In this document: piece by piece, positions 1 through 64,000 of the stretch | How positions within the stretch are numbered: the first letter of the stretch is position 1 | Layout: each line of letters opens with the position of its first letter | Source: a virus | Virus record (IMG/VR): IMGVR_UViG_3300045988_165521 | Length of the DNA stretch: 64,000 nucleotides | Reading direction: 5' to 3' (one strand) | Notes under the pieces: generated by a model | Databases searched by the model: none | What the model saw: the letters and a program-made list of their open reading frames with translations, nothing else | What the model was told of the DNA's origin: nothing | Program-made: the position numbers and the translations under genes

Positions 1-2971
1 GATTAGTAATTGAAAGAATTTCATCTATAATTTCTAATTCTACATCAGATTTAATATGTCCATTATAATAGTCTGTAATCATAGTTGCTAAAACTTCTTC
101 ATCAAAGTCAGATCCTTTCTTATTTTTATAATAAGGATTTTGTCGCATTTTATTTCATAATTCAGTATCCTGTATATTACCTAAAATCTTATAATAAGAC
201 TCGGCATACATATTTCTGGCATCTGCTAAGTATAGATGTGAGAATTCATGAATTAGAGTATCGTCTGTAGCTCTATCAATATTAATATAAATTATTCCTT
301 CTTTAATAAATCCTTTTGCATTTTTAGTTGCAGTATCTTCATTAATTACATCCTGATCTGTTACTAATCTTACATTTTGTAAAGAATTTACATTTTTTAC
401 TAATTCTGTAATCTTAGTAGACATTGGAGTTTTTAAGTCATAGAATTTGGTTGGTCCATTATTAAATAAAGTAAGTTGATTTGGATCAGTTCTAACAAAA
501 GCTCCTGAATTAAAGATAATATATTTTAGAGTTCTAGATATAAGATTTTTAGAAGATGTATTAGTATTATTAAACTCGTCTACTAATATGTTATGTTCAC
601 CTATTAGTTTATTAGTTACAGCATACATTCTTTGATCATATCCTTCATCAAATAACTCTGCTACACTTTCAGCTATACCTCATTCCGTATAATAGTCAAA
701 ATCAATGTAAGAAACAACTTCTTCATTATTTTTATCTGCTTTTGTTTCTGCAACTTCAATAATTTTAGCAATTTTTAAAGCTTCTTCAACAGATATGTCT
801 GTTTTAGGAATATTGAATCTTACTTGTCTATACTGTTCATTTCCATCAGATACTAATATTGGTTTAGTAGTGTCTGTAGTTGAATCATTATAATCTCTAT
901 CTAAAGAAGTGTTTTCTTCAGATTTAAATCCAATGGTTTCAACATTTTCATTTGCTGCATTAATAAGTACTGCTTCTGCTCTTTCTGCCATACTATCATT
1001 TGGATCTCGTTTTAGGAATGTATTAGCAAGTTCTTGTGGATTTTGTTGGTCAATTCAATTATTATAATCAACAACTCATAATGAATTATCTCCACTTGCT
1101 ACTAAGTCCTCAAACAAACGAGTTAATGAAGCCTGTCCAAAACCATCTTTATTAACAATTAAGTTATATAAATAGAAGGCATTAACAGGATTTAGAGCTC
1201 CAAATTCAGGAATCGTAACTTTATTTAAACTATTAAAATCTCGTAAGATTTGTTCATAAAGAGCTTTAGTCTTTTGACTATTATCTATCTGCATCATATT
1301 AAATGGAAGTTTATAAAAACCTCTTTCCTTACCTTCTGAATCAGTTTTTAATCCAAAGCATAAATATTTAATAAATGCATTATCAGGTAATTTTTCTTTA
1401 AGTGTAGGAATAATATAATCCTCAATATACATTCTAAATGAATCAATATTATCCTTACTGTCTAGATTAATTATAAAGTTTTCATCTTTATTAATTAAAA
1501 TAGAATTTTCTACCTTATATTTCTGATTAACTGGAACTTGAAAACTTAAATTTTTAGTTTTAATTCATGAATCAATTAAGAAATCATCAATATTATTTCT
1601 AGTTTGTCTAAATTCTTCTATAGATAACTTACTTCCTCTTTTAGGAGTAGTTTCATCTATAACAATAGATTCAACTTGATTTCTAACTGATAATCGATTA
1701 AGAACTTCATTATCAACACTTAGAATATTAAACATTTCTTTGAAGTGTGGAACACTAGCTATAACATCTAATATATTAAATGTAGTCTTAACTTTTTCAT
1801 AGTTATCAATTTGTTGTAATCTGTATTCTTCATTAGCAGCAAACTTTAGTAGATTAAATTTCTCTCCAATTTCATCTTTAAACTTATCATTAATAAATGT
1901 TTCAATTCCCTTAATATAAGAATACTTTCCTCATTTATCTGTAGGAAGTCCTTGATTAATTTTTAATAATCTACCTAGAATTCTAATTTCTTCTGCACCT
2001 TTAGCTTTCTTCTTTAATGTTTTAAATAAAATTTCAGTTCTCTCATTTGCTTTTTTAATATCAGCTTCAGATGCATTTGGTTTATAAACTGCATATCTTG
2101 AAGGATCCTCAATAGCTTGATCAATGAAATGAATTTTATTTTTTGGAATTGGATCTGTTCAAAGATTTGTATTATATTCCGATACAAGTTTAGTAACTTC
2201 TTCAGATACCATTAAATCTCCAATTCTTCTTAAGTCCTCTCCAAGCATTAAACTATATACATAAAGATCAACTCAATTAGAGTCTGCATTAATTTTCTTA
2301 AGAATTAACTCCTTAGCATTATCTGTTGCAGCATTCAGTAACTCTCCCATATCAAGAGATTTATCAGTTAATCTTCTTTGGAAGTCTATTAGCTGAATAA
2401 TATTATTTGCAATATCTGCAGGAACTGCATATTTAGAAATTCATTCAGGATCATTTTCAAACATAGAAAAATCTACATTTGCTAATGTAATTAATTGTTC
2501 TGTTCCATTACGTTGAGAACCTTTAATAAATGAATATCTACTTAAAAGTTGTCTAGTTGTATCAAAATCTCTATTTACAATACTATCATAAACTTGTTTA
2601 AATCTAGTATTATATAAGTTAGATAATGCAAAGAAACTCTTTAATCCTGTAGCAACATTACCAATTACAGTTTTACCAACCATATTTTGAATTTGCATTA
2701 AATATTTACTAGCAGAATTATAAGGATTCATAATTTTTGCACTTTCTCCTAATACAGATTTACTTGCAAGTTCTTGCATATGAGATGTTGTAATAGGCAT
2801 TGTAAGGTTAATCTGATTTTTAGGACTCAGTATTACATCAAATACACCATTTACAATTGCATTTCTTATAGCATCCTGTTTTAAGAATGGAGATATTTTT
2901 GGATCTTCTGCATTTGTAAGTAATTTTCCATTATCAGAAATAGAATAACCTAATATATAAACTTTATCGAT
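1..2971 (-). CDS. virion-packaged RNA polymerase, exon 2 (3' portion; gene continues past the left edge)
   Basis: Track fragments 2441-2974, 1076-1432, 680-991 and 155-628 share one frame and are broken only by TGA. I hand-translated 1432-2441 and 1-155 and found no TAA/TAG. The first codons ATC GAT AAA (IDK) complete DYD|ID after intron removal. An HEFSH (HExxH) motif lies at 236-250. Confidence 0.75.
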
Positions 2972-3280
2972 CATTTTTGTTAGCTTATACTTTCGTATAA
3001 GATCAGACTATATCTTATATTAAATTACTATTACCATAATTTAATATCCTCTTATTTCCATAAAATAATGTACTCTACTTGTTTATTCCTAATAATATTT
3101 CTTTATTAGTATACTTTCGATAGTCGTTGAACCCTTCTTTTCAGAATCGGCTGCTGATTGTCCAATACTTATAATTTTTAAACATTCACACTTAAATCAT
3201 TTTTAGATTTTATGTTGTAGTTTATAAGTCTCTAAGGAGTTTCCAGCAATTAAAGAGGTTTTATTATGACACGTAACTCT
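2972..3280 (-). ncRNA. group I intron (309 nt, no ORF) inside the RNAP gene
   Basis: The minus strand carries the canonical core elements in 5'-3' order: P AATTGCTGGAAA (3240-3251), Q AATCAGCAGCC (3149-3159), R GTTCAACGACTA (3121-3132), S AAGATATAGTC (3006-3016). P/Q can pair as UGCUG/CAGCA and R/S as GACUA/UAGUC. The internal guide GTCATAA (3264-3270) pairs with the exon end TTATGAT, with U.G at the splice site. The terminal G is at 2972. Excision restores the reading frame. Confidence 0.85.
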
Positions 3281-6200
3281 ATCATAATCAGACCCTTGCA
3301 ACCATGTCTGATTGGTTGGTACGTAGACCTCGTTTATGTCACTATCAGTAAATAGAACTACTTCCATTGGCATGAATGACTGCATTGACTGACAAGGAAT
3401 ACGAGTACCTACAAATCTTAAACTTTGCTCAAACGCTTTATATTTTCTATCAGCGATTTTCATAATTCTATTACTAAATCTAATATTTTGATTATCACTT
3501 AACATTTGAATTAGCACTTGAGGATTTATAGATTTGTAATCTAAAATTTCTCTAGTTTTAATATCTCCAAAATCATCATAATATGATAAAGTAACATTAT
3601 CTGACGTAAATTGATTTGCAATTAAGTTTTTGTAATTAGATAATGTATAGTTATACTTATAGTTATTATAGATTCTAGAGTTATTAATTTCAGAAAATCT
3701 TTCAAAGTTATCTACAATTACTAGGTCATGTATATTTCCCGCAGTATCAGTATATTTATAAAACTTCTTACCTTCTGCAGATGCTATTTCTTTTCCATTG
3801 TAGTAAACAGAATTATCAACTATAGTAAAATCTCCATTTGGAGTTAAAGTATCCTTATATAAATTATTCAGATTTTGGTCTCCAATTTTTACATAAAGTT
3901 TTTTTCCAGTTCCATCAAATAATATTATATCATAAGATTCAGGATCAGGATTATCATTGTTATAATAACCTTGAATTCTCTCTTTAAAGAACTCAGCTCC
4001 TCTTTGCTTAATTTTAGCTATAGAATCTCCTGGCAATAGACCTAATTGTTTAGCATATAATTTACCCATAATAATCTGGGCAGGAATTACTTGTACAGAT
4101 TCAGGTTGTACATATATACCTTTTCATTGGATCATCTTACCATCAGCTAAATCATTTAATAATTTTTGCTGAGATTTATGTAACGAGTTTTCTATAAAGT
4201 CAATATCGATTTCTCCCGCACTAGGAATTAATGTTCCTGCTGCTCTACGAATTAGAGCTATTCTCTCTGTAGTAATAATATTAACTCATTCTAGTTGCTC
4301 AGGGGTTAAATCTTTTTCAGGTTTTCCTTTAAGCCCAAGTTCCTTTTTAATATTAGATCTTAATTCATCATATAGAGATTCTACAGTAGTACTAGAGGTT
4401 CCATTAAGATAATGTAATGCACGAGTTATATCTCCTTCAAAAATACTATGTTTTTCTCCCTCAATAATAAATATTGTATCAGAGCCTTTAAGATTTTTTG
4501 GACGTAAAGATAATCTTTGTGCATATCTCTTATCTAAGTTTTTATACCAATCGTATTTTGAATAATTATCAATTTTTACAATATCATACATATCAGTAGT
4601 AACCTTTCCCATATATCCTTGATATAGTCTCTGTCCTTCTTCGTTTAATAAAGGTTCTTCTCCATTAAACATCGGATCATTATAAACTACTAATGTATCT
4701 TCAAAATCGATAGGATTTTCAGCAGTAAGTTCTGTAACAAATGGGTTAATAAGATTTTCTCCATTACGAGTAACAAAAGGACCTTGCATTGCTTCATTAA
4801 TAGTTAAATCTGCAAGACGAGGATCTGTAGCTCTACCTACCTTTCTTACTAAATCTAAAAGTTCATCGTAGTTATAGTTATATCCTCCTCAGTTAAAATA
4901 CTGTTGTATTCCATATGATGGATTTAATACAGATGCAACACCATCATAATGACGTCTAATTGCATCTTTTACTAAAGAAGATGTAACTGTTGAGTTAAAG
5001 ATACCATTAATAGTACCTGCACTAAAAGGAATTTTATAATCGATTTTCTTTTCATTAAAACTTTGTTGAGCAAGTTTTATAAAAGATTGTGCAAGTCCTA
5101 AAGTATCTTTATTATTTGTTTGAAAAGCTTTAACTAAAGCTTTACCATAAATTTCATATAAGGCTTGTTGATCTCCTGTTTCAAGAACTTCATGAATTTC
5201 TGCAATAGCATCATGACATAATTTACCAATTTCTTGATATACTTTTGTTGCTAAATCGTGTGTAAATCCATTTTGTTCAAGAGCACTAATCATCTGAGTC
5301 ATTTCAGTAACTTCTGCTTCATCAAGTTCGTGATCTGCATTCATCTGAACTCCTCCAAACTTAGTTGACATTGTAGTAAACCATAAATCAGAATCATTAG
5401 TTCAAATATCATCACCATTAACATTAGAAGCTCCTACTTTGATAGCAGACTTATTTACAAGATACCCAATCATATAGTCTTTTAGATTATTATCATTAAT
5501 AATATCATTAACAACATCTAAATTATTTTCTGATCAATATAATTGTTTCATGGTATCATTGTATTCCATTGATCATGCTCCACCAAATATTTGATCTAAA
5601 TCATATATACTACTAATTTTAATATCTGTATCGAGTATACTATTTTCTCCAATTATATTACCAAATATATCGGTTTCAATACGTTCTACTTGAGCTACAT
5701 TATTATTAATAACTACATGATTTATTTTCCAATAAGTTTGGTTATCAGGTTCTCTATAGAAGAGATTATCAAATACTTTGTCATAAACGATTGTTACACT
5801 AGGATCAAATAGTAAATTATGCATTTTTCTAAACATATTTTCTAACTTGATATCTGATCCCCATGATGTACGCCTATTAGCATTTGTAATCTCATATTCT
5901 GCTCACTTTAATAATTTAGGTAAACCATATTCTCCATTCATATCTGCTAAAATAGTCTTTTTATTTCTACCTACTTTAGCATCAATTAGTGATACATTTT
6001 GTTGTCTAGAAAAATACGGACTTGTAAATCCAGATCCGTCCATAGAATCAACACTATCAGTCATACCAGAAATATTTTGTACAGCAGCTCCAATATCTCC
6101 AACTACAGCCATTTTAACTTTTGGAGCAACTCCATTTTTTAATCCTTGTGCAAAGGAATGATGAGTAGCTCCATAAATAACCATACGTTTTACCTGAGAA

Positions 6201-8998
6201 ATTCATCTGCTTGCAAAACTATGTTCAAGATATCCTTCTGTTGCAGAAACCTCTTTATTCTTATTTGGGTGAGCGTAAACTCCTCCAACCATCATTTTAT
6301 TATATTCATTACTTAAAAATGAATCCATAATGAAATACGAATAAAGCATAGGATTTAATTTACCATCCTTATCATGTATTGTTACATAAGGAACTGTATA
6401 TGATATTGGCTCATCATTTTCATCAACAGTTTCAATAGTTCTTTCAGAAATTCAGTTACTTCATTTTCTAGCAGAAAATGCCTTATATACATTTTTGTCA
6501 GAAGATATACTCTCTCAAGCTTTTGAGCTGTCTTCAAGAAACCTATTTAATTGATAATTAATAAACTCATCAAATTGATTTCTTTCGCTGAATATATTAT
6601 AAAGATTTTCAAGTGTTTCATTAAAGACATTTTTCTTAGTATATGGATCTTTAGATATATGAACTTCTTCAATAAATTCTAATCCGCTGTCTCTAAATTT
6701 TTGCTTAATATCTGCAAGTTTTGTTTTTGCAATATATTCTTTTAGATCACTTATAGTCTTAAATTCTTTACCTGTAGCTTGAGTATAGTCGTTTAAGATT
6801 TTATTAATTAAGTTCGTATATTGACTTTGATTTGTTTTAAATCAAATATTCATAATAGGTTCTAAATCAGATACATTCTTACTAGAATAATATTTCTCTA
6901 AAACTTCCTTAAAATTAATTGAACCTAAATCTTTAAAATCTCAATTTTGACTTAAATCAAATTGCATTACAAAATGTTTATTTTTATCTGAATAAACTGT
7001 TGATTGCAATCCAATTACTCCATTTACCTTTCCACCCTGCTCAGAAACAGATTTACTTGAAGTTAATCCTTCAAAGAAATCATATACTATTGCAAGATGT
7101 ATTACTTCATCTTCAGTAAGATTACTAGATTGTTTAGTATAATCTCCAATAGTTACTTCTGCTCGAATCTTTGGATTTTTAATACGTTGAATATTGTTAA
7201 ATACAGCATTATCACTCATTACTGTATCAGATCCTCATCCAAGTTCATCATGTAAATATTGGCTCATTTTCTTATGAGAGTACGCTAAACAAACCATTTG
7301 ATATAATGGTAAATTGTTACCTTCTGCATTCTTAATAACATTAATTGTATCAGAACCATTAGTAACACTTAATACTTTTGCTAAATCATTTGCTTGCCCA
7401 AAGAAGCCATTTTTGCCTATATCAATAATTTGACCTGAGTTAGCACTATATAAAATACTACCTAATATTGGAGTTAATAATGTAATTTTATTTACATTTT
7501 TTTCTCTTGGGAATACTTGTTCTGCAACTTGATTAAAATCATCTGCTACTAAAAATGAAGCAAAATCCATAAGTAAATCGTCCATTAAAGTATCAGATAT
7601 TATTCCTGCAGAATTAATTTCTCCAGTATCAGGATTATATTTTAAATTTAAAGTATTACTGCCTTCTGTAATACTAATATTAGTTCCAATAATATTAATA
7701 TCATATTTTCCTAACTTATTTTGGAAGTTAGTTTTATTATCAATTCAGTAAGTACTTGCAGCTTTAATAATATCTGTAAGAAAATATCTCTGTATTTGTA
7801 CAGGTCTATCAGTTAAATTCTTACCAGTTAATTCTCCAGTTAAGTTATCTTTACCATAACTAATATAACTTGACAATACTGTCTTATTCATTAGATGTGT
7901 ATACATTTGTTTAATTGGAGTAGCCATTTTATCTGAATAGATAAACTTAGCAATACCTCTTAACTTATTTTGTAAGTAAGTTGTATGTTCTGGTGCTACA
8001 GATTTAGTTGCTAGTGCATTTAAATATTTTCCAATAATTTTACTCATATCCATATTGCCCTCTTTAGCTATTTCATCAACTATTTCAGGGTCAACACTTT
8101 CCTCCATAAATAATTTTACTTTACCCATAGCTGAATTAAATCCAGATAAGGTAATAGCTGTATTTTCTATAATAACACCATCTTCATTAACTTCAGGAAA
8201 ATATGAAAGTAAAATTTTTGCGAGGTCACTGACGGATTCTTCAGCTCCCATAAATTCATTATTACTAAAACCAGTATAGTGTGTAACATTCGGACCATCA
8301 TAATTATAACGTCCTACAGCATAAGTTGAACTATTTTTATATTCTGGTTTAATAGAAATAAATGGAGTATATAATCTCAATATATCATCAAAAGTTTTTA
8401 ATGTTACATATGCATTATATGCATTAAAATATTTTTGATCTTGAGTAAGTCCTGCATTTTTAATGTAGGCTTCATATTCTTTTATAGTATCTTCAAATAC
8501 ATTAATAATAGATTTAGGTTCTGAGTCAATGCTAATAGGAGTTAGAGGTTTTCCCATGAACTCACTAATAATAGATAAAAGTTCTTGTTTATATTTAAAA
8601 ATTCCAGTATTTAAATTGGAATAACTTCCTAAAGTAGCATTTGCATCTATAAAAGAATCAGAATTAATATCAAATACAGACATAGAAATAATCTTTTTTG
8701 CTGTATCGTCAATCATTTTATTATATTGTCTTGAATTATCAATATAATATTGTTGAGGTGAAGATCCTTCGGGAGGAAGTTCAATACCTAATCTACTACT
8801 AATCTTTTTAGGTTCAGATACAGGTGTTGGAGCGGAGTCTGTATAGACTCCACTCACAAACATATTAAACACCTCATCTGGATTTGTAAAATGCTCATTT
8901 ATGAACACTTTAAACGCATTTAAATCTGGTGAATCACCTCTAAGTAAGTTCTTCAGTAATGGATAATATGCTGAAGAATATCCACATTTAACACTCAT
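3281..8998 (-). CDS. virion-packaged RNA polymerase (crAss/phi14:2 gp66-like two-barrel RNAP), exon 1
   Basis: ATG at 8996-8998 overlaps the upstream TAA (8988-8990). Eight track fragments (7745-8998 down to 3203-4069) share one frame and are separated only by TGA; gaps 6184-6941, 7585-7745 and 7219-7235 were translated and are open. 1906 codons. The exon ends ..FVGTRIPCQSMQSFMPMEVV..VPTNQTWLQGSDYD, which resembles the RxP...NADFDGD double-psi beta-barrel of RNAP beta'. Confidence 0.75.
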
Positions 8999-11900
8999 TA
9001 TTTTCTAATTTTGCTATTAAGTATTTCTGTACATTTTCTCTTAACTCGTTGAGAGTTTCATTTGTACTAACTTCGTTATAATATGTACTTGCTATAGTTT
9101 CAGTTACTTCTGTATTTTGCATTAGAGCTTTAAGGTACATTAAAATATTAGGACTTGATTTATATAAATCTTTTGCAGAATTTAAATAATCTCTAAGTTC
9201 TATATATTCATTCATTGTATTAAACTCTCTAATTGAGTAAACTCCATCTTTATTTTCAAGTACAAAATTCTTTGAATTATTGTTCAAAGATACTAAAAAT
9301 GGTACAAATTTCAAATTATTTCTAGAGATAATTGTAACATCATCTGGATTCTCTCCATAAGCTTGTTTAAACAAATTCTTAAGCATAGGAGTAAGATCAT
9401 CCTTTATTTCCTTCATTACAATTTCAGGATTATTAGAGTCTCCAACAATTTGAATTATTGTATAATTTGGAGTAGTAACTTTATTTAATATTTCATTATT
9501 AACATCATTAACTGTTGATTCTAATAAGTCTATATTTGTAATTTGTTTGTTTACTCCAAACTGTTTAAACGCCTCATTAATTTTATTAATCTTTTGACGT
9601 TGTAAATCCTCTTGAATAGCTCTTTCAGGATTAACTTGAATCTTGTCATAATCTATAATAAAATCGTTTCCTATTAAATTAGAAGCATTTGTAGAATATA
9701 GTTTATTTGCAGTATCAACTTCATAGTAGAATTGAGATCCTGGAACTACTTTAACTATATTATCAAATACATAAATACCTTGCTTAAAGTTTGGATTGTT
9801 TTCAATATGTTCTTGAAGTTTTTCAGTTTTTCCAACAAAGTCTGCAAAGATATTATATATCATAAATGATGGATCATTAAATTCAAATTTACCAACTCTA
9901 CTAATGTAACCTGTTTGCATTAACATTTGATTAGAATCGAAAGATCCAAACTCATTATTTAGTAAAGAATCAAAATCAGAATAAGTTTTTCCATTAACAA
10001 CATATTGTCCATTCTCCATAGTTACTATTCTTTCAGTAACGTTTCCTCTATCAGCTTGAGTTACTTTATCTTCATAAGTAACTCTAATAGCATTAGTATA
10101 TCCTGATTGTGTATTTAATAATGCTCCTAATCTAAATAATATAGTACTCTTATAAGGAGAGAAATATGCAAGTGAAATCAATTGTCCAGCTCTTTCTCTG
10201 TTAAGATTATTTCTAACTTTAACATTTTTGTCTCCTGCTTTTCTTTGTGCATTAAATAAATTAACATTATTAATTGCAGTATGAATTATATTATCTAAAG
10301 AAGCAACACTATTTATTCCTATTAATCGAATTCTAGGATCATTTTGAACAGTATTTAAAATAGTTCCGTCTTCTGCTACTTGTGCTTTTAAGTGAGCTTC
10401 AAATTCCTTTTGACTAACTAATGGATCAGCAGAGAATAACATAAATGTATTTCCTCTATTCTGATACATAAATGCATAGTTTCTTGAATCTGCTTCAAAT
10501 GTGTTTCCTACTCATTTAATATGATCCTGCCAATCTGACTTACGTACTACTAAAGATACTAATTTTCCGTAAGAAGAGAATAAACCTCCTTTATTTAAGG
10601 CACTTGTATTAAAGTTAGATACATCAACAGTTGTTAACTCTCCTTCTCTTGTAAACTTAGCATAACTTCCAATTGTAAAATCTCCTGTATATATTCCAAA
10701 TCTTGGAGTTGTAAACAATAGAGGAATTTGTGCTGTTTTATCTTTTATCTGAATTTTTGCTACTAATAATCCTCTTCGCCCATTATCATATGGAACTACT
10801 TCAAAAATAGGTTTAGTTTTTAGTGCAGTTTCTAGTTCACTAAAAGCACGACCCATAGCTCTATCTTTATTTAAAGCTTGTCCTAATCGTACAATTTCTC
10901 TTGGATTTTTATAATATCCATATTTAAAATAAGCAGCAATTAAATTTAAAGCTCTAATATATTTAGGAGCTGCAAGTTTACCTTTTATTCCTAATATATT
11001 AAATAAAGAAGATTCTGTAGCTTGATCATAATTTCATAAATTATTTAAATAGAAATCTGCAATATCATTCCATTTAGAAATATTTAAAGGATTATCTGTT
11101 ATTCCTATATTCTGAGGAACTTCTTCAAGTATATCTACAGGAGGAGTAACAGATTGTTCAACATTAGGAGCATGTACTGGATTTTGATCTGTAACAGGAG
11201 GTTGTTCTCTAGTATTACTATTGAATGTTTGTTTGCTTTGTGCTTCAGCTACAGTATTTTTAGTCTCTGGTTCTACAGAAGCTTGTCTAACTGGTTCCTT
11301 AGGAGATTCACTAACTATTTCTGCTTCTGGTGTAGGTTCTACTCTTGGCTTAATATTTTGTTCTGAAGTTGGTATAACAGGTTCAGCTACAATTGGATTT
11401 GGATTTACTTCTTCATAATCAATAGATTCAGGACTATTCTCTAATAACTTAGTTCTTCAGTCTTTGAAATCACTAATTTGTTCAGGAGATACTTCAATAC
11501 TTCCTGCACTAGTCATATCATTAATTGTGTTTAACTTTAAATCTAGACTAATCCCGTTATCTACAATAATTGTACCTTTTGTAGAACGTTGAGTTAATGT
11601 ATATAAATCCTTAAGAGTTAAATAGTGTTTTCCACTCGTATCTTTCCAACTCTTGTCTATGATTGCAAATTCAAATTCATCACCTTGGACACTATCTAAT
11701 CCTACTACTTTAACATTATTAATAGCAGTATATTTAGCAGGATTATCAGTTATAATTGCAATATCATTAGATAGTTTAGATAACTTTTCTACTATTTTAG
11801 GTACTTCATCTGAACTATTAATAAATTTCTCCCCACCAAACGTTTCAGTAGTTTCAAAATATTTAAGTTTAATACTATTTTCAGATAATATCTGTTTCGT

Positions 11901-14900
11901 TAATAAATCGATCTCACTTTCAAGCATACTTGGATTATCATAGTATTTATCTCAAGTTTGATCTAATATGCTATTTAAAATAGTATAGTTATCATATTTT
12001 GCAATATTATTTGGACGTAATGGAGCAGTTAAATTTGGAGTACGTGTAAAATAAGTATCCTCAATTCCTAAATTTCTTCTTGCATTTTCATAGAAAATAT
12101 AAGCTGAATTTTGTTTATAATCTCCTAATCCAACAATTAAGATATTATTTTTATTTGCCCATCTTGTAATTAATTCAAGATCAATTTTAGAAAACTGACT
12201 AATTTCATCAATAAATATGATTCTATTCTCAGTTTCTGCAAACATTGTAGCTGGATTTAATTTTAAATCCTTAAGAGTATATGTAGGTATTTCATCACTT
12301 CCAACAATTTTATTAATATCTGATTCAGAAATTTGTTTTCCCAGAATCTGTTCAATTAATTCTGCTTTCGTATATGATAAACCGTCATGCTCAATTGCTG
12401 CAGATAATCGATCTGTTTGTTTTCTTGTTGGAGCTACAGTTACAATTTTATATGCAGGCATCATTTTACGTAGCACATAAGCTACACCTTGTGTTTTACC
12501 TGTACCTGCTCCTCCAAATGTTGCAATAAAGTTTAATAACTGACTTTTATTCTGTATATAGCTATCATCTGATGTAGCTTTTGCTTTTGCAGATAAATAT
12601 TTAACAAATTCATTAAATAAATCTTTTCTTTCAGATGTTGCGTGTATTAATCTAATTGCATATTCTTGAGAAAAAATTGGAGCTTTATTAAATGATTCAT
12701 CAGTAATAACAGTTTTTAAGTTGTTATAGAAATTTGCAGAAGGATATGCAATTAAAGACAATAAATAAACTGCCTGATCATAATCAGTAATCGCTTCAGT
12801 ATCTCTAGCAAGCTTAGTAGGTCTTGCTGTAATTAAAGAAGTTGGTTCGAATAGTGAAGTGATGCGGTCAACTATTTCGCTATTAGATAATTTTTGATCA
12901 TCTATAAGTTGATAGATTTTGGTTTCTAATCTAATAGAAGCCTCTTCAAATTCTTTAAAATTACTCTCCTTAATTTCTCCTGATGGAAAATCTGATTCAG
13001 CAATTAATTGGTTAAGATCTAAGTTAAATAATGATGCAAACTTATCTTTGATTACAGAATTTTCATTATTAAGTAACAGATTTGTAAATCTCTGTCTCAT
13101 ATTAATAGCAATATCTTTCTGTTCTCTAATTTTTTGTGCATTATTATTTTCTGCAATATTTATTAATGTATCAAGTCTAACCTTAATTGCTTTAAGATCT
13201 GAAGACATATTAACGGCAGTTTCTGTATCAATTTCTGCAAGTAGATCTTTAGCTAATTTTTTCTTGAACTTATTAATTTGAGTGTTATATCCTCCATCTA
13301 TAGAAGCAATAACAAGAGAATTTAAAATATCAATAAATCTACTGGTTTCTTTAAGTCTAGTTAAAGCATCCTTATTATTAATAATATAATCCTCTAATGA
13401 ATCACTATTAAGGTAACTATTATACTCTTTTACAATCAAATTAACAATATTTTGACTAATTCCATTAGTAGATACTGCAAATTTTTCTAATAACTCATAT
13501 GCAGGGGATACCTTAATTTCAGATTTAAGATCTGAAACCTCATTAATAAAATCAATAAACGTTCTTCCAGATATTCTCGGAATAATTCCAGCTAATATTT
13601 CATCTGCACTTTGTCCTAAAAAGTCTGATAAATTTACTAATCCATCACTTTGTAAAAGATTTTGATATGCAGTTTTAATTTGATTTATATCTCCTTTTGA
13701 TACAATATCTTGAAAAACAGCTAAGTCATTTGCAATTCCAAGAGTCATTGACTCATAGCCTACACTATCACCTTCTGTTCTTTCTATATATGTATTAATA
13801 GCTTTTTCTCAATTAGCTGCAGCAATTCCTTCAGTAAATCCATTTACATAAAAATAACTCTTCATTAATGCAACAAGGTCTACATCTGTTACATCAGTAT
13901 ATAAAGAATTGGTCTTTAAATAGTTTAAGAAGTCAATATAGCTATTTGCATATGTATTTAAGGCAGCTTCATTATCAGCTATAAATGTATCTGGTCTAGC
14001 TAATACTTTTCTACCTTCTTCACTCAGCTCCTGAGTTAATCCAAATTCATGTCTTTTAACTAAGAAATCTTTGTAGTTTTCAGTTAATTGTAATTTAGTT
14101 TGAAGTTCAGATACTTCTTCATTAATTTCAACTCCTTCGGGAAGTTTAGAAATAGCTTCATCTATTTGTGCCTTTAGATTAGCAATTTCTTTATCAATGT
14201 TTTTAATACGATTAGTTTGAATAGTTTCACCTGGAGCATAAGCTTTACTTAAGTCTACAGTTTTTTGAGATACAGCTACTAAATCTTGTGCAATAGATTC
14301 ATTTAGACTATTAAATAAATCATACGCAGCAAACACCTTTGTTTTCTCAGTTGATTTAGAATATTTTTCATATTCTTCTTTAATCACAACTTTTTCATCA
14401 GATGTTAATTGATCGAAGTCTTTCTGATATCGAACTTTGGTAAAATTATGAATACCTAAGTCATCAACAAAAGCAGTTGCTAATGCAGGAGTAGCTGCAA
14501 ATCTTGCTTGCCCAAAATAATAGTCATTAAGTTCTCCAGAGACTATTTTATCACGTCTTGCTCTTAAATCATCAAGTTTTGCTTTTAGTCTTTGAAATTC
14601 TACATCATTTTGAGCTGCTGCTATTTTGTTATCCACATCTTTAGGAGTTTTAGGCTCAAGTTCAGTAGGAGTAATCTTAGATTCTAAAGCTACTTTAGTT
14701 TTTAAGATATCTTCTGTAAGATCATTCCAATCAGAGAATATTTTACTATAAACTCCAGTTTCAATTAACTGATTTTTAAGGCTTTCTCTCTGAATATTCT
14801 TAGCTAAATTTTCAGTTACATTAATACCAGTCATAGCTGATAATGCTTGTAACTCTTCATCAGAAATGTTTAGTCCCTCTTCATTGATAATACTATCAAT

Positions 14901-16874
14901 CCGATCGATGTAACTATTAATTTGGTTATAAATAACATCGTTCTGAGATTCTCCTTCTTTTGCAGATTCGTAATTAATTTTATATCCGTCAGGCTCTTTA
15001 ACAAGTTCAAACGATTTACCCGAAAGATTTCTACTTCCAAGAGCTCCTTTATCACGTAATCTTGTTAATTCTCTTTTTAAATCAGAGGTTTTGCCATTTC
15101 TTATTAAGTATATAATTTCTTGTAGAGAATCATTAGGTTTTTGAATTGCCTCATCATTTATAGAATTAATTCTTGAATCTCATTTTTCATGTAAACTAAA
15201 TACAGCACCACCAATAGCACCTCCCATAAATGCAGAAGTATAACGTGCAAACGCTTCTTCTGTACTTATACCAAAATCGAGTTGTTTATCCTTATCTACA
15301 ATACCCATTGTGTTTAACGCTGAGTAAAGTGCTTTTACCATGTCAGATGAAACTTCTTCTGCTACTTCTTCAACTCCTTCATTAACACTGTCATATAAAA
15401 TATTTCCAGGTTTCATTTTAGAGATTCGTTGCTGAATTTGGTTTTTAGTTTTCATAACCCAATTTGCAGCAGCTTTAGGAGAAACAATTCCTTTGTTGAT
15501 GTTTTCATTAGTTACTTTTTCAGCAACGTCTTTAATAACTCCTTTTACAGATGTACGGTCGAGATATGTATCTTTAAACCAAAAATCTTTAAAATAGTCA
15601 TTATTCATTAATGCAAACATTGCTCCCATTACAGATAACATTCCTAATCCTGCAACTCTATCAGATGCTCCAGCTTGCTTAAACGCATCATAGGCATCTG
15701 TAGAAGAGGTTCCTGCCATATAAGCTAAAGATAAAGCTCTACCTCATTTAATTGTATTTTCACTAACATTTTCTTTACCTACTATTCACTTCGGTATTTG
15801 CCCAATTACTCTTTGTTGAAATAATTGTCTTGAGCTATCTTCAACTAATTTTCCAATATTTTCTACGTTTCAGAAACTATTTCTTCCATAATCAGAAACA
15901 CTTCCATCAAATCTAGAAAACCAAGCTTGAATATCGGTAGCAGTTTGTGCTGATTTAGAGTTAGTTAAATCTCCCTTAGCAATACCTTCGATACTTCTAA
16001 ATAATACTGGGAATAATTTTCCTATTTCAACAGCAGCTGTCATACCACCATATACTTGTCCAACATATGGAATAAGCATTGGACCTACTTTAAATAAAAC
16101 CTTTGCTAAGGTACCTCCAACACTTTTATCTAATCCATCTGAATCAAAGAAATCATATTTATTCCATTTACTTCCATCAACAGTTAATGTATCAGAGATA
16201 TGTAAAATATCTTTCCCTGTAAGTGGTCTATTTCCTAATGTTTCATAAAATGGATCTCCCTCACTATTAAATTTTAAATCTCCTGCTTTATGTGAAACAG
16301 TTCTTCCATTTACTTCATGAGTTCCATCTTCATCTCATTGAGCTAATACAAGTGTAGGACGAGCTATAGCACCTAGTCCACCTCATTCATTAGGTGTTCA
16401 ATCCTCAAACTTACCAGTATCATAATTAAATATCTTATTTGTTTGTGCTACTTCACGTATCGACATAGTTGGATCAGAAGTTTCATATAGATTAACTATA
16501 CCTCGACTTCTTCTTTCAGGATTAGAGAATTTAACTAATCTTGAACTAACATCCAGTACATCGCCGCCGAGAGGTGCAAAATAATCTGCAGGATCATATG
16601 TAAATGAATCCATAGCAGTACTTGCTAAATTAGCTTCATCTGCACGATTATATAAGTCTAAAACGTCTTTATAATATGTATCGAATTTTTGATTATCAAA
16701 TTCTCCTCTATCGTTTTTAAACGCCTCTTGTATTTCTGGTATACCTTTATAATATTCTCTATCTTTAACATTAGAGTTATCAGGAGTTATTCCTAAATTA
16801 ACTAACTCTTGAACACTTTTGTCTGGCTGAAAAAATAATGCCGCCAGCCAATCATTTTTCTTCTGATCCATCAT
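8988..16874 (-). CDS. giant cargo/ejection-type protein, 2628 aa, with embedded SF1 helicase domain
   Basis: ATG at 16872-16874 is preceded by an in-frame TAA (16878-16880); stop TAA at 8988-8990. Nine track fragments share one frame, and all eight gaps were translated and are interrupted only by TGA. Hydrophobic Gly/Ala-rich segments occur in the N-terminal third (VGPMLIPYVGQVYGGMTAAV, RVAGLGMLSVMGAMFALM, FMGGAIGGAVFSL). SF1 helicase motifs lie at about 11560-12560: GGAGTGKT, IIFIDEISQ, VGLGDYKQ, VQGDEFEFAII, LTQRSTKG. Confidence 0.8.
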
Positions 16875-59945: not shown

Positions 59946-60986
59946 TTATACAACTTGTTTTATTTTATCATTATAAGGATTAGTATCAACTGTTTCTGCA
60001 GCTTGAATTTGAACTTGTTGCTGTTTTGTTTCAATAAGTTTATCGTTATAATCCTTATCGTTTTTAACTTTTTCTCTTTCAATAGCTACTTTTTCAGCTT
60101 CAAGTTGTAGTCTAGCTTGACTATTTTGTTTAAGTTGATTTTGTGATTGACCTAATTCCCTTTGTAATTGTTCATTTTGTTTCTGTAACTGTTGCAGATT
60201 TTGTTCATATTGCTGAAGTTGTTGCTGCAACTGAGAAACACTATTATTTTCTTCCTTCTTAACAGCAGTAGCTTTAGCTACATAACGTTTAAGTTCGGAC
60301 ATACTATTGGCAGTTGCAATACTTACTGCCATATCGGGATCTGACATTCCAGCTTTAATTAATTCAATATTAAGAGCCTTTACAGTTTCCATATCTTTAA
60401 AAGACTTAGAACTATCCTCAATATGTAAATCAAAATCTGTAAGTGTATAATGTTCAGGAAGTGCAGTAAATATTCTTGAATATTTATTACCTAACACAAT
60501 AGTACCAGTAATACCATTTGGATATACTAATTTAGCTAAATTAAGCATATCATAATTAGCTTCTTTATAAATTATATCCATGGTTTCAAAATATTGTTTA
60601 GTTAATAAACCTGACATTTTAACTCCAAGTTGAACATTAGATACAGCATCTCTCTGTTCATATTGAGCTAACCTCTCAGGTAACACTCCTGTAATTGAAG
60701 AAGCTTGTTGTTCTACAGCTTGAATAGCTAATTGAATACCTTGAATAGCTTGAGCTTTAACTGTATCATCAAATCCATTAAAAATAGTATTAGGCATACC
60801 TTCATTACCTTCCTCCTTACTATTTATTAATGCTAAGCCATTCTTTTTATATGCTTGTCAAGCTTTAACTCGATCTGTTAATTTTTCACCTAAAAACGAA
60901 GGAATAAAAGAAACATCCATCCAATCTCCAACTCCTCCTGAAGAAGCAATAAGATTATCTCTAAAATATATAAGTAAATCATATTT
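59946..60986 (-). CDS. portal protein, exon 2
   Basis: Starts AAA TAT GAT (KYDLLIYFRDNLIASSGGVGDWMDV..) in frame with track ORF 59946-60797 through one TGA. The C-terminus is Q-rich coiled coil. Stop TAA at 59946-59948. Confidence 0.75.
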
Positions 60987-61314
60987 CATTGTTTATTCGA
61001 TATAGGTCGTTAATCTATATCCGTCTTTTTGACTGCTGCATGTCACCATGCAGATTAGACTATATCATACAAATTTGATTTAAAATTAATTCAAATAAAT
61101 TCTGTTTCATTATATTTCATAACTACTTATAATTAATTTTAAATTAAACTTGTCCCCGCACTTCCACTTACTTAAGTGTACTCCTTTCGGATAGTCGTTG
61201 AACTTTCAAAGATATTTCTATCTAAGCTTAGCTGCTGATTGTCTTAAATTTACTATTATTCAATTTAAGGTTTTCCAGCAATTCACGGGGTTTATACAGG
61301 ACTCATATAATTTA
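60987..61314 (-). ncRNA. group I intron (328 nt, no ORF) inside the portal gene
   Basis: Minus-strand P AATTGCTGGAAA (61272-61283), Q AATCAGCAGC (61231-61240), R GTTCAACGACTA (61191-61202), S GATATAGTC (61058-61066). The guide GTCCTGTA (61295-61302) pairs with the exon end TACAGGAT over 8 bp, with U.G at the splice site. The terminal G is at 60987. Excision is in frame. Confidence 0.85.
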
Positions 61315-62490
61315 ATCCTGTAGGTCCATAGTATGTGCTATTAATGAATATGGATCTCCATTTTTATCTAAGAAAAACATTCCATTAACAGATAATCTGC
61401 ATCTACTAGGACAATCTGCACTTCTTACAATATACTTTGATTCTCCACGAGTAATGTATACTTCTGAACCAATTTTTACTCCTTCATGTCTTGTTAATTC
61501 TCCAGTTTTATAATCTGCTTCAATTCATTCAACTTCATATACAGGAATAAGATGATTTTTTATAGGTTCTATTGAATCATAATCTCCAGGTCATCCTGGA
61601 TGTGCTTCAAGTCCTGCAAGAATACCTGTATGTAAATTATCCGCTCGTAAATTAGGTTCAGCAGGTTTACCAACATATCTAACCAAATAAGTAGGAGATG
61701 TTGAATCAGCAGTTTGTTGCATATCTCTAATTTTCTTAGCTGCTTCTGTAGTTAATTCTGATCTGAATGTATTTAAGATATCCTCTCTTGACATTCATTT
61801 TCTAATAACAACTCTCTTAGAATCTGCAAGATAAGGAGAATTTGGATTACGTTCTATAAATGTATTAACGGGATTTAAAATTTCAATATTGACATTTGAA
61901 TTACTTTCTGTAGGTTTTACTCTATAGTAACAAGTACCTGTAACAAGTAAATCTGTAAGTAATTCTGCCATTTTACGTTTTAAATCGATGTTTCTTGATT
62001 GTCTTAAATAATCAAGAATATTTTGTGCAGCAATTTCATATTCCGAAACAAAAGATTGATCAATATCTTGTTGAATTGAGTTGATTTCTTTTTCAATAAA
62101 AGGATCATTTACAATTTCTTTATTTTCAATAATAGCTGCAATAATGTTATTCTTTAAATACTGTTGCAAATAATTAAATACTTCTGCACTAATTTTAAGT
62201 TGCTTTTCTCTCATTATATTTGAAACAGTCTTTTCATCTTTGCAAGATACTTTTAAATCTTGATTTAAACCTAGATATTCTCCAACTAATACATCAATAT
62301 GTTTCTTAATTAATGGTGTAAAACTAACTGATGTAGGAGTCCCAATTCCGTAATTTTCTTCTAGGTGTTTGAATTGATCTGCATCTCTACGACAATGATA
62401 ATATCCATAAGCTTTTCTTATAGCAACTTTATCATATACAAGATTACCTATCGCATCATTAATCTTCTTTACTTCATTCTCTATCACCAT
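61315..62490 (-). CDS. portal protein, exon 1
   Basis: ATG at 62488-62490. Fragments 61795-62490 and 61591-61794 plus 61315-61591 were translated as one frame broken only by TGA. 392 codons, ending ..SLIAHTMDLQD. It sits immediately downstream of TerL. The spliced product is 738 aa. Confidence 0.75.
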
Positions 62491-62767
62491 ATTCTAATAC
62501 TATATATTGATTTCCTTCACCTGGAGTAGTCATTTCTCCAGAATAATATTTTGTTCTATCTAGTTGTCTGTTTCTAAGTTCTTTTTCAAGAAATTCGAAA
62601 AAACCTTCTTCATCACCTTCATAGACTAAAACTAGTGGAGCTTTTCATTGATTTAAATCTAAACTTAATTTCCATTGATTACCATCTATAGTTAATGTAA
62701 AGTCTCCAGTGTAATATGCACACATAGCCTTTTCAATTATTTCATATACTTTATCAACGAGTTCCAT
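62459..62767 (-). CDS. small ORF, 102 aa, between TerL and portal (overlaps both)
   Basis: ATG at 62765-62767, inside the last TerL codons. Two in-frame TGA. TAA at 62459-62461, 32 nt inside the portal ORF. Confidence 0.4.
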
Positions 62768-64000
62768 TCTTTTGCGGTATTACTCCATATTCTTTATAGC
62801 CTTTTTCATTAGTGAACCATCCAATATTTTCTCATTCTTTTGCTAATTTATCTTGAGCGGCAGGTCGTATATTCATTAGCTCTTCATCTGCAATTTCCGC
62901 CATTTCCATGCTCGCGATAATATCAAACTTTCGTTTATTTTCTCAAGAATATTTTAACAATTGCTCAAGCATTTCATCAATATCAATTGAATAACAGTAA
63001 TCATTAACAAAATTATTAATTAATTCAAGACCATGCTTGATAATAGCTTCTGTAGCTGGTACACCAATCATTTGTGAGTTGCCTCTTTTCATATCTCCAA
63101 GAGTTGAAGCAGGACGTTTCATAAATAGACTATCTTTCTTTTTTTCTTTAAAATATGTAACAATACTAATCTTAGTATGTTCAAGTAGTGCTTTACAATT
63201 ATATCATACTAATAACTTCATTGCTACATCATACGCTTCTCGAATATCTCGAGGACGATCTTTATAGATCGCAACATATTTCGCTTCTTGTAATCCATAT
63301 ATACGTTTCTTAATAACTATACAGAAATCAGATACATCTGTTGAGGTAGAAGAATCTCCAGAACCTTGGTCAATAGAGTCTATTCCTGCAACATATAAAT
63401 TTTTTAATACAAGACCATCTTCGTCACGAAGTGGCCTTTCATATATAGCAATTTTACTATTTGGATTATTTATAACTTTTACTTTTGTTAAATCAGGAGT
63501 ATCTCCAGAACGATCTCATAATAATGATACATACTCTGGTTTTAATCCTGCTTTAAATATCCTAATTTGGGTTAATCTATCTGCAATTGCAATTGAATCA
63601 AAGATATTTTCACCCTGCTTATATAATGCTTCATTTGGAATAAAACAGTGCTCTGCACAATAATCAAGTAGGTCTTTGCCACTTAATTTTTTACGTTCTT
63701 CCTCATAAAACTTTTTAAATTCTTCAGATTGTGTAACGCCTCTTGTATCTAAGAATTCTTCTCGTAAACTAAACTTATGAGCTGGAATAAAGAAAGCTGT
63801 TAATTGTGGTTTTCTATCTTCTGTATCATAGTTTTTATATGGAAGTACATTATACCCTTCTGGTTTTGCAAAAATGTTTGATAAACCTTCAAGTGCCATA
63901 TCATCACCACCTGTACCTAAAGCAATACGTGTTCCAAAATGATAACCACCAAGCTCAACAAGAGCATTACCTTGAATCCAACTTTTAGTTAAATATTTAT
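62751..64000 (-). CDS. terL: terminase large subunit, C-terminal (nuclease) part; 5' end beyond the right edge
   Basis: One frame from 64000 to TAA (62751-62753), broken only by TGA; 62751-63516 was fully translated. ..NLYVAGIDSIDQGSGDS.. and ..DYCAEHCFIPNEAL.. fit the RNase-H-like nuclease domain of TerL. The portal gene follows. Confidence 0.8.

Follow-up and report, generated by a model that had tools for sequence, protein, structure and literature searches.

The stretch of DNA analysed here, hereafter the window, comprises 64,000 nucleotides (nt) of the IMG/VR virus record IMGVR_UViG_3300045988_165521. Its left end is occupied, on the minus strand, by a giant gene encoding a homologue of the virion RNA polymerase of crAss-like phages. 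A 309-nt block at positions 2972-3280 interrupts this gene within the codons of the catalytic D-x-D-x-D (DxDxD) loop and is very probably a functional group I intron, devoid of an open reading frame (ORF), in a TGA-recoding crAss-like phage of the Zeta-group type. The features of the locus, in the direction of transcription, are the following.

3281-8998, minus strand: exon 1 of the RNA polymerase gene, 1906 codons, ending ..WLQGSDYD; homologues and profile matches
3281-3289, minus strand: D-Y-D codons GAT TAT GAT, with the first two catalytic aspartates
2972-3280, minus strand: group I intron, 309 nt, 26% G+C; RF00028 match, fold and intron-less alleles
3264-3270, minus strand: internal guide GTCATAA, intron strand of P1; covaries with the exon in relatives
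3253-3258, minus strand: P3 5' strand CCTCTT, forming a duplex with 3048-3053; 6/6 pairs covary in relatives
3243-3249, minus strand: P4 5' strand TTGCTGG (P element)
3161-3238, minus strand: P5 with a long P5a-c extension; folds
3151-3157, minus strand: P4 3' strand TCAGCAG (Q element)
3133-3150, minus strand: P6 hairpin with a GAAA loop; folds and relatives
3121-3132, minus strand: R element GTTCAACGACTA, with the P7 5' strand (A-[C bulge]-GACUA)
3060-3109, minus strand: two hairpins between P7 and P3', at the position of P7.1/P7.2 of subgroup IA; folds
3048-3053, minus strand: P3 3' strand AAGAGG
3017-3047, minus strand: P8 hairpin, present in every relative despite sequence differences
3005-3016, minus strand: S element AAGATATAGTCT, with J8/7 and the P7 3' strand
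2984-3001, minus strand: P9 hairpin with a GAAA loop; folds and relatives
2972-2983, minus strand: 3' tail CTAACAAAAATG, base 2972 being the terminal G at the 3' splice site
1-2971, minus strand: exon 2 of the RNA polymerase gene, starting IDKVYILGY, at least 990 codons and continuing past the left window edge
2966-2971, minus strand: I-D codons ATC GAT, the start of exon 2, with the third catalytic aspartate

When the minus-strand frame is followed from the ATG at 8998 to the left window edge, TAA and TAG codons are confined to positions 3010-3205, and the 8.7 kb of exons contain neither of them. The same frame carries 25 TGA codons between 7747 and 157, of which 24 are exonic (15 in exon 1, read as Trp) and one, at 3199, lies within the intron. 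Once spliced, the coding sequence spans at least 2896 codons, with 24 TGA against 5 TGG. Opposite the TGA codons of the window, relatives have TGA, TGG or codons for hydrophobic or aromatic residues, and recoding of TGA to Trp is known for Zeta-type phages (PMC7886860; PMC12386605). The preliminary description of this locus had placed the 309-nt block in an otherwise continuous frame of more than 8.7 kb. The block and the exons free of TAA and TAG are borne out, but the continuity holds only if the 24 exonic TGA are taken as sense codons. Indeed, because of the in-frame TGA, the region is a string of short ORFs under the standard code, the polymerase gene giving about 20 of them with translation table 11. 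The use of TGA as a sense codon covers positions 1-8998 and most of the minus-strand genes of the window.

Direct searches of the protein against PHROGs and Pfam, and a phmmer search of the PDB with a stretch of 384 amino acids (aa) around the junction, gave no match, and megablast against GenBank phages gave none either. A tblastn search reached crAss-like phages, including cr114_1 of the Suoliviridae (E 7e-10), with the alignment at RIPxQS...GSD(F/Y)DIDK. The corresponding cr114_1 segment matches PDB 6VR4, the gp66 RNA polymerase of phage phi14:2, with E 6.4e-28, and a family profile that includes cr114_1 matches it with E 4.4e-20. A similar relationship was obtained by hhalign, using as query the Zeta-type family with the window sequence first and no classical sequences, and as target eight classical Crassvirales polymerases including phi14:2 g066 (98.9% probability, E 1.3e-17, 184 columns). 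In this alignment, GSDYDIDK falls on GSDFDIDK of the classical polymerases. The spliced product thus carries DYDID, a D-F/Y-D-I/V-D catalytic motif with I in the fourth position, and G-S-D-x-D-I-D is the sole invariant block among 17-23 homologues. In gp66, the catalytic motif is 1361-DFDID-1365 and each of its aspartates is essential (preprint 10.1101/2020.03.07.982082). Since DYDID aligns on this motif, the intron lies between the second and the third catalytic aspartates. Both the identity of the host gene and the position of the intron therefore agree with the preliminary description. The two proteins share the catalytic motif with I or V at the fourth position (DFDID in gp66, DYDID in the window), and the flanking RIPxQ and DNAK motifs are colinear. 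On the other hand, gp66 has 2180 residues and an intron-less gene, whereas the window's protein, of at least 2896 residues, has diverged too far to be detected by direct sequence searches. By homology to phi14:2, the polymerase of the window may be packaged in the virion and transcribe early genes, and its activity would depend on splicing; packaging and obligatory splicing had been put too strongly before. Elsewhere in the window, on the strand of the polymerase gene, are the genes for a major head protein, a portal and a terminase, an arrangement that fits a crAss-like late-gene block.

The guide GTCATAA pairs with the exon sequence TTATGAT (3281-3287), which forms the exon strand of P1, and 3281 provides the U of the U.G pair at the 5' splice site, its partner being G3270. 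The block ends in G at 2972, and excision of 2972-3280 joins the exons in frame to give ..NQTWLQGSDYD followed by IDKVYILGYSISDNGK; the peptide spanning the junction of the spliced product reads ..TWLQGSDYDIDK. The same product could otherwise be obtained only by shifting both boundaries by 1 nt, which violates the rules of a U at position -1 and a terminal G. The P, Q, R and S elements occur on the minus strand at the places given above, as had been proposed, and the conserved core order P3-P4-P5-P6-P7-P3'-P8-P7' is present with the P/Q and R/S pairings. The G-C pair of the R element is presumably the guanosine-binding pair, by comparison with the Tetrahymena model. A free fold of the intron with 10 exon bases forms P1, P3, P4, P5, P5a, P6, P7.1, P7.2, P8 and P9, leaving out only the pseudoknotted P7, and its energy has a z of -2.66 relative to shuffled sequences. 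The predicted architecture is IA-like: P2 is absent, the P5 extension is long, and two predicted hairpins stand at the P7.1/P7.2 position.

The intron has stops in all three frames and contains no ORF of 60 aa or more under tables 4 and 11. A local Rfam scan of 901 nt (window 2700-3600) matched the full RF00028 model on the minus strand at 2984-3336, with 34.9 bits and E 4.8e-7. This alignment, the folds, the complete core and the splice-site rules support the identity as a group I intron. None of 100 shuffled versions of the window contained the DNA pattern running from Q to R. The pattern is common to group I introns at large: at least 120 unrelated IMG/VR contigs match it, and it is therefore useless for tracing the family of the polymerase intron. 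An intein or another protein insertion is out, given the stops in every frame of the block and its absence from close relatives; no colinear protein insertion occurs at this site in the 17-23 homologous polymerases. A group II intron was likewise rejected.

Stop codons and frameshifts inside the DxDxD motif of Zeta polymerases have been noticed before. In Yutin et al. (2021; PMC7886860), they are put down to 'additional, yet unknown expression mechanisms', and a 2023 review (PMC10136315) restates both the breaks and the unknown mechanisms. Translational bypassing or some other recoding that skips the 309 nt would be in line with that proposal. The block nevertheless shows all the hallmarks of a group I intron, and this known mechanism suffices. 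To our knowledge, moreover, 309 nt far exceeds the length of any known bypass, and we consider such recoding extremely unlikely.

A protein search and an IMG/VR scan provided 41 related loci, whose contigs reach 174 kb. At the DxDxD codons, 27 of the 41 have no intron and are colinear, and 14 have one. Eleven of the intron-less loci are 96-98% identical to the window at the protein level and read WLQGSDYDIDKVYILGY; such close relatives, in which GSDYDIDKVYILGY is uninterrupted, support the exact excision. The 309-nt intron of the window recurs in five contigs from four metagenomes with zero differences. At the same site (D-x-D/I-D-K), 7/41 loci carry an intron of 926-930 nt with a LAGLIDADG ORF. 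Two further loci (L011/L018, 3060-3994) have a 935-nt intron with a LAGLIDADG ORF located 6 nt upstream (G-S-D/Y-D-I-D-K), and this -6 site is also occupied in the Logan contig L165 by an ORF-less intron of 254 nt (2750-3003). Finally, a 1075-nt intron lies 3 nt upstream (D-Y/D-I-D-K) in GenBank MT835470 (locus L002, 7935-9009). There are thus three staggered insertion points within 6 nt of the D-x-D-x-D codons, and each guide matches its own exon, the exon/guide pairs across relatives being TTATGAT/GTCATAA, ACTTGGAT/GTTCAAGT, ACTACGAT/GTTGTAGT and GTGATTAT/GTAATCAC. The last base of exon 1 is T, and that of the intron G, in every variant; the terminal G is present in all 15 related introns. 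An ORF-less partial intron, L166 (Logan SRR33283143, positions 1-260 of a 1-kb contig), resembles that of the window in the P7.1/7.2 region and then reads ..LLIIRDLDIDKQY. Its 3' end is followed by ..LLIIRDLDIDK, with no G-S before the first aspartate, and the start of exon 2 cannot be placed there.

An assembly artefact or a chimeric contig would be conceivable for a record whose source is presumably a metagenome assembly. The same sequence with the same boundaries is found in independent assemblies, and related introns occupy the same codons in GenBank, IMG/VR and Logan contigs, so that the chance of an artefact is close to negligible.

The seven distinct related introns, the ORF-less L165 included, share the same set of helices. 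U.G is found at the first P1 position in 7/7 relatives and four of the five other P1 positions covary, while P3, P5, P6, P8 and P9 differ in sequence among relatives with their pairing kept.

These relatives also bear on whether the polymerase could be made as two polypeptides without RNA splicing. The first would consist of exon 1 and 25 intron-encoded residues, and the second would start from the ATG that ends the intron. This ATG is in frame with exon 2, so that gene callers open an ORF there. Cells and jumbo phages have multisubunit polymerases, and phages often have split polymerase genes, which lends such an arrangement some plausibility. The protein boundaries also vary among close Zeta phages, according to Yutin et al. 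(PMC7886860). On the other hand, the break would hit a metal-binding loop of five residues, the terminal ATG is not conserved, being TTG or ACG in relatives, and the 96-98% identical relatives have one continuous chain. A conserved ribozyme fold would, moreover, have no reason to covary with the exon. We consider a split enzyme highly improbable. Gene callers do split the gene, as had been anticipated: public protein sets hold an exon-1 fragment that reads into the intron (P0014, 94 members), together with exon-2 fragments from relatives that start at the ATG ending the intron.

Several results weigh against a functional, spliced intron in a polymerase gene. The RF00028 score is below the Rfam gathering score of 50, a database threshold and not a biological criterion; the low value is due to the large insertions in P5 and at P7.1/7.2 and to the missing P2. 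Two whole-window Rfam scans, with gathering and E-value thresholds, did not recover the polymerase intron, because the speed filters dropped the match. The preliminary description had taken the lack of a covariance-model hit as grounds to abandon the intron; in such scans, this lack would be a false negative. No P10 pairing is evident in the polymerase intron. A search of the 64-kb window for tRNA genes found none, and hence no suppressor tRNA reading TGA as Trp, which must sit outside the window or be supplied by the host. On the protein side, direct searches with the window protein, or with a profile lacking the bridging cr114_1, did not reach gp66/6VR4. An AlphaFold2 model of the homologue P0007 was poor (pLDDT 69.8, pTM 0.38, motif region below 50), and Foldseek with this model gave no PDB match with E of 0.001 or less; the model thus has no bearing, in either direction, on the two double-psi beta-barrel fold of the gp66 family. 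The comparative pairing counts come from a helix table registered by hand from each sequence's own fold and so lean towards the structure: changes on both sides at 24 of 41 helix positions, two non-pairs overall, and pairing with own partners at 224/225 positions compared with 70% after swapping strands between sequences. A plain MAFFT alignment of the intron cores misaligned P1, P3', P8 and P9 and gave no independent pair count. The recurrence of the helices at homologous places with unrelated sequences is independent of the hand curation. The analysis bears directly on sequence, structure, comparative support, the exact junction and motif homology; from these we infer splicing, its timing, catalytic activity, virion packaging and the mode of spread.

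The low score would also fit a decayed intron that no longer splices, in which case the polymerase would be a pseudogene or the phage would use another polymerase. The loss of the endonuclease gene and the very A+T-rich composition (26% G+C) point in the same direction. Yet the core helices and the splice-site rules are all intact, and the flanking 8.7 kb are still open save for the recoded TGA. The allele is unchanged in four metagenomes and in the 94-member protein cluster, and the ORF-less relative L165 at the -6 site keeps the fold. A splicing-dead remnant is accordingly judged very unlikely.

The intron exactly separates codon 2 (Asp) from codon 3 (Ile) of the catalytic D-Y-D-I-D. For a functional intron, the following course can be proposed. 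In the late transcript, the exon sequence UUAUGAU would pair with the guide GUCAUAA to form P1, and an external guanosine would attack just 3' of the U at 3281. Exon ligation would follow after docking of the terminal G at 2972, and the spliced mRNA would encode a single chain of at least 2896 residues whose metal-binding loop is intact. In unspliced RNA, translation would stop 26 codons into the intron, and a complete active site could not be made. The intron of the window is the endonuclease-less member of a mobile family whose LAGLIDADG relatives are inserted at 0, -3 and -6 nt; it was probably gained by homing or recombination and is now inherited with the gene.

The intron of the window encodes no homing endonuclease, as a homing intron would; this copy is a non-autonomous member that does not home by itself. 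LAGLIDADG ORFs are present in the homologous introns of loci L033, L030, L042, L011 and L002. In these long introns the ORF sits between P7 and P3', in the place of the window's hairpins at 3060-3109, and three of the ORFs scanned against Pfam match LAGLIDADG_2 with E 1e-18 to 1e-26. The LAGLIDADG ORFs of the TGA-recoding relatives (L033, L030, L042 and L011) contain in-frame TGA, and expression of their endonucleases thus depends on the recoding of the phage. The ORF of MT835470 can be read through with the standard code.

With its three staggered insertion points, the site is a polymorphic hot spot. On the upstream side, the intron-less L010 and L008 hardly differ from the window in the last 1.1-2 kb before the site, L008 from about -1200 onwards only. 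Downstream, in comparison with window positions 2470-2971, they show 3-6 differences per 100 nt in the first 400-500 nt and are then largely identical again. This patch of divergence looks like a co-conversion tract left by gain or loss of the intron through recombination. Within the intron itself, the P5 extension (3161-3238) matches that of the -6 intron of L011, a near-identical phage, at 72/75 positions (96%), while the 5' part (P1 loop, guide and P3) matches at 22/37 and P6 at 10/17. The intron is mosaic, a pattern that suggests recombination between introns.

In relatives, the polymerase gene has another intron hot spot between ..LLNAATD and NAKELILKKINA, occupied by an intron with a LAGLIDADG gene. 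It is found in L165 (3661-4911, LAGLIDADG gene 3772-4626) and L167 (717-1956), and also in L011, L013, L016 and L019, from about 600 nt past the DxDxD site. The motif at this place is conserved in gp66 too (DNAKDPY), and ..ATD is the end of many protein fragments in the databases. In the window, nothing interrupts the gene there.

The portal gene of the window appears to be split as well, into ORFs at 61312-62490 and 59946-60989, by an ORF-less group I intron of 328 nt (60987-61314, minus strand). In a local scan it scores 56.9 bits with RF00028 (E 1.2e-13), above the gathering score, and it is absent from both whole-window Rfam scans. Its exon sequence TACAGGAT pairs with the guide GTCCTGTA, and it ends in ..AATG, as does the polymerase intron.

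Among the neighbouring genes, an ORF of 2628 codons (8988-16874, minus strand) immediately precedes the polymerase gene, with an overlap of 11 nt at the start of the latter. This ORF, which carries a P-loop-like motif (GGAGTGKT), presumably encodes a further protein of the crAss transcription block. At the other end of the window, the ORF for the large terminase subunit (62751-63899, minus strand) matches only positions 343-735 of a 758-position PHROG profile. Its N-terminal half either lies past the right window edge or has been split off by another insertion.

Zeta-group crAss-like phages are known for a very high density of introns, up to 14 per genome, found through endonuclease domains, and the legend of Fig. 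3 places an intron LAGLIDADG in the transcription block (Yutin et al. 2021, PMC7886860). All signs place the window in one assemblage with the Zeta-group (and Delta-group) phages of that study: TGA recoding, relatives on contigs of up to 174 kb, and a block of RNA polymerase, major capsid protein, portal and large terminase subunit genes. The introns of Yutin et al. were detected by their endonuclease domains, whereas that of the window has no ORF and is invisible to this method. A 2025 paper on Zeta phages mentions only homing endonuclease ORFs (PMC12386605). In the published texts, as distinct from the figures, there is no description of the window's intron, its exact site, a ribozyme structure, intron-less alleles or staggered sites.

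It is well known that introns occur in the regions of essential phage genes that encode active sites (PMC12908238). In the jumbo phage PhiPA3, an RNA polymerase subunit gene is interrupted by an intron whose homing endonuclease targets the intron-less virion-polymerase allele of the co-infecting relative PhiKZ (PMC12908238). The present intron is similarly located in a phage RNA polymerase gene, and the copies of its relatives have an endonuclease. However, the PhiPA3 enzyme is multisubunit and belongs to a nucleus-forming jumbo phage, whereas that of the window is of the single-chain, two-barrel crAss type; the PhiPA3 intron carries an endonuclease and the window's copy does not. The classical phage group I introns (T4 td, nrdB and sunY; those of the SPO1, SP82 and Bastille DNA polymerase genes; Twort) are self-splicing and likewise placed in the most conserved regions of essential genes, those that encode active sites. 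They are often of IA type, with or without homing endonuclease genes, and display presence/absence polymorphism together with co-conversion of the flanking exon. Their enzymes are mostly of the GIY-YIG or HNH type, whereas the relatives of the window's intron have LAGLIDADG ORFs, with in-frame TGA in the TGA-recoding phages, and the host gene is a different one.

These observations can be joined, tentatively, in a picture that we hold to be possible but somewhat doubtful: the DxDxD codons would be a contested homing site, the window's intron an immunity allele, and ORF-less introns the cause of much of the fragmentation of Zeta genes. An ORF-less intron may persist at such a site by interrupting the recognition sequence of the endonucleases of co-circulating relatives. 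By analogy with PhiPA3 and PhiKZ, the immunity allele may take part in phage-phage interference.

Collectively, the finding is confirmed as real and its interpretation is supported: the intron adds a new case to a kind of element already known. Newly described here are the related LAGLIDADG introns at the window's site and at -3 and -6 nt, and the second ORF-less intron, in the portal gene. A small ORF-less group I intron is an ordinary explanation for a polymerase gene seen as broken inside DxDxD. It removes part of the mystery of Zeta gene expression and allows the gene to be annotated as one protein. Searches for endonuclease domains cannot detect ORF-less introns, and the default Rfam pipeline missed both introns of the window, including one that is above the gathering score when scanned locally. 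Since both routes of detection are blind to them, intron counts in these abundant gut phages are probably underestimates. Furthermore, the three staggered sites, with autonomous and non-autonomous forms and intron-less, near-identical phages, make up a compact natural system in which the spread and loss of introns, and possible phage-phage interference, can be studied. If the DxDxD codons are indeed a contested homing site, ORF-less introns would account for much of the 'unknown expression mechanism' of fragmented Zeta genes.

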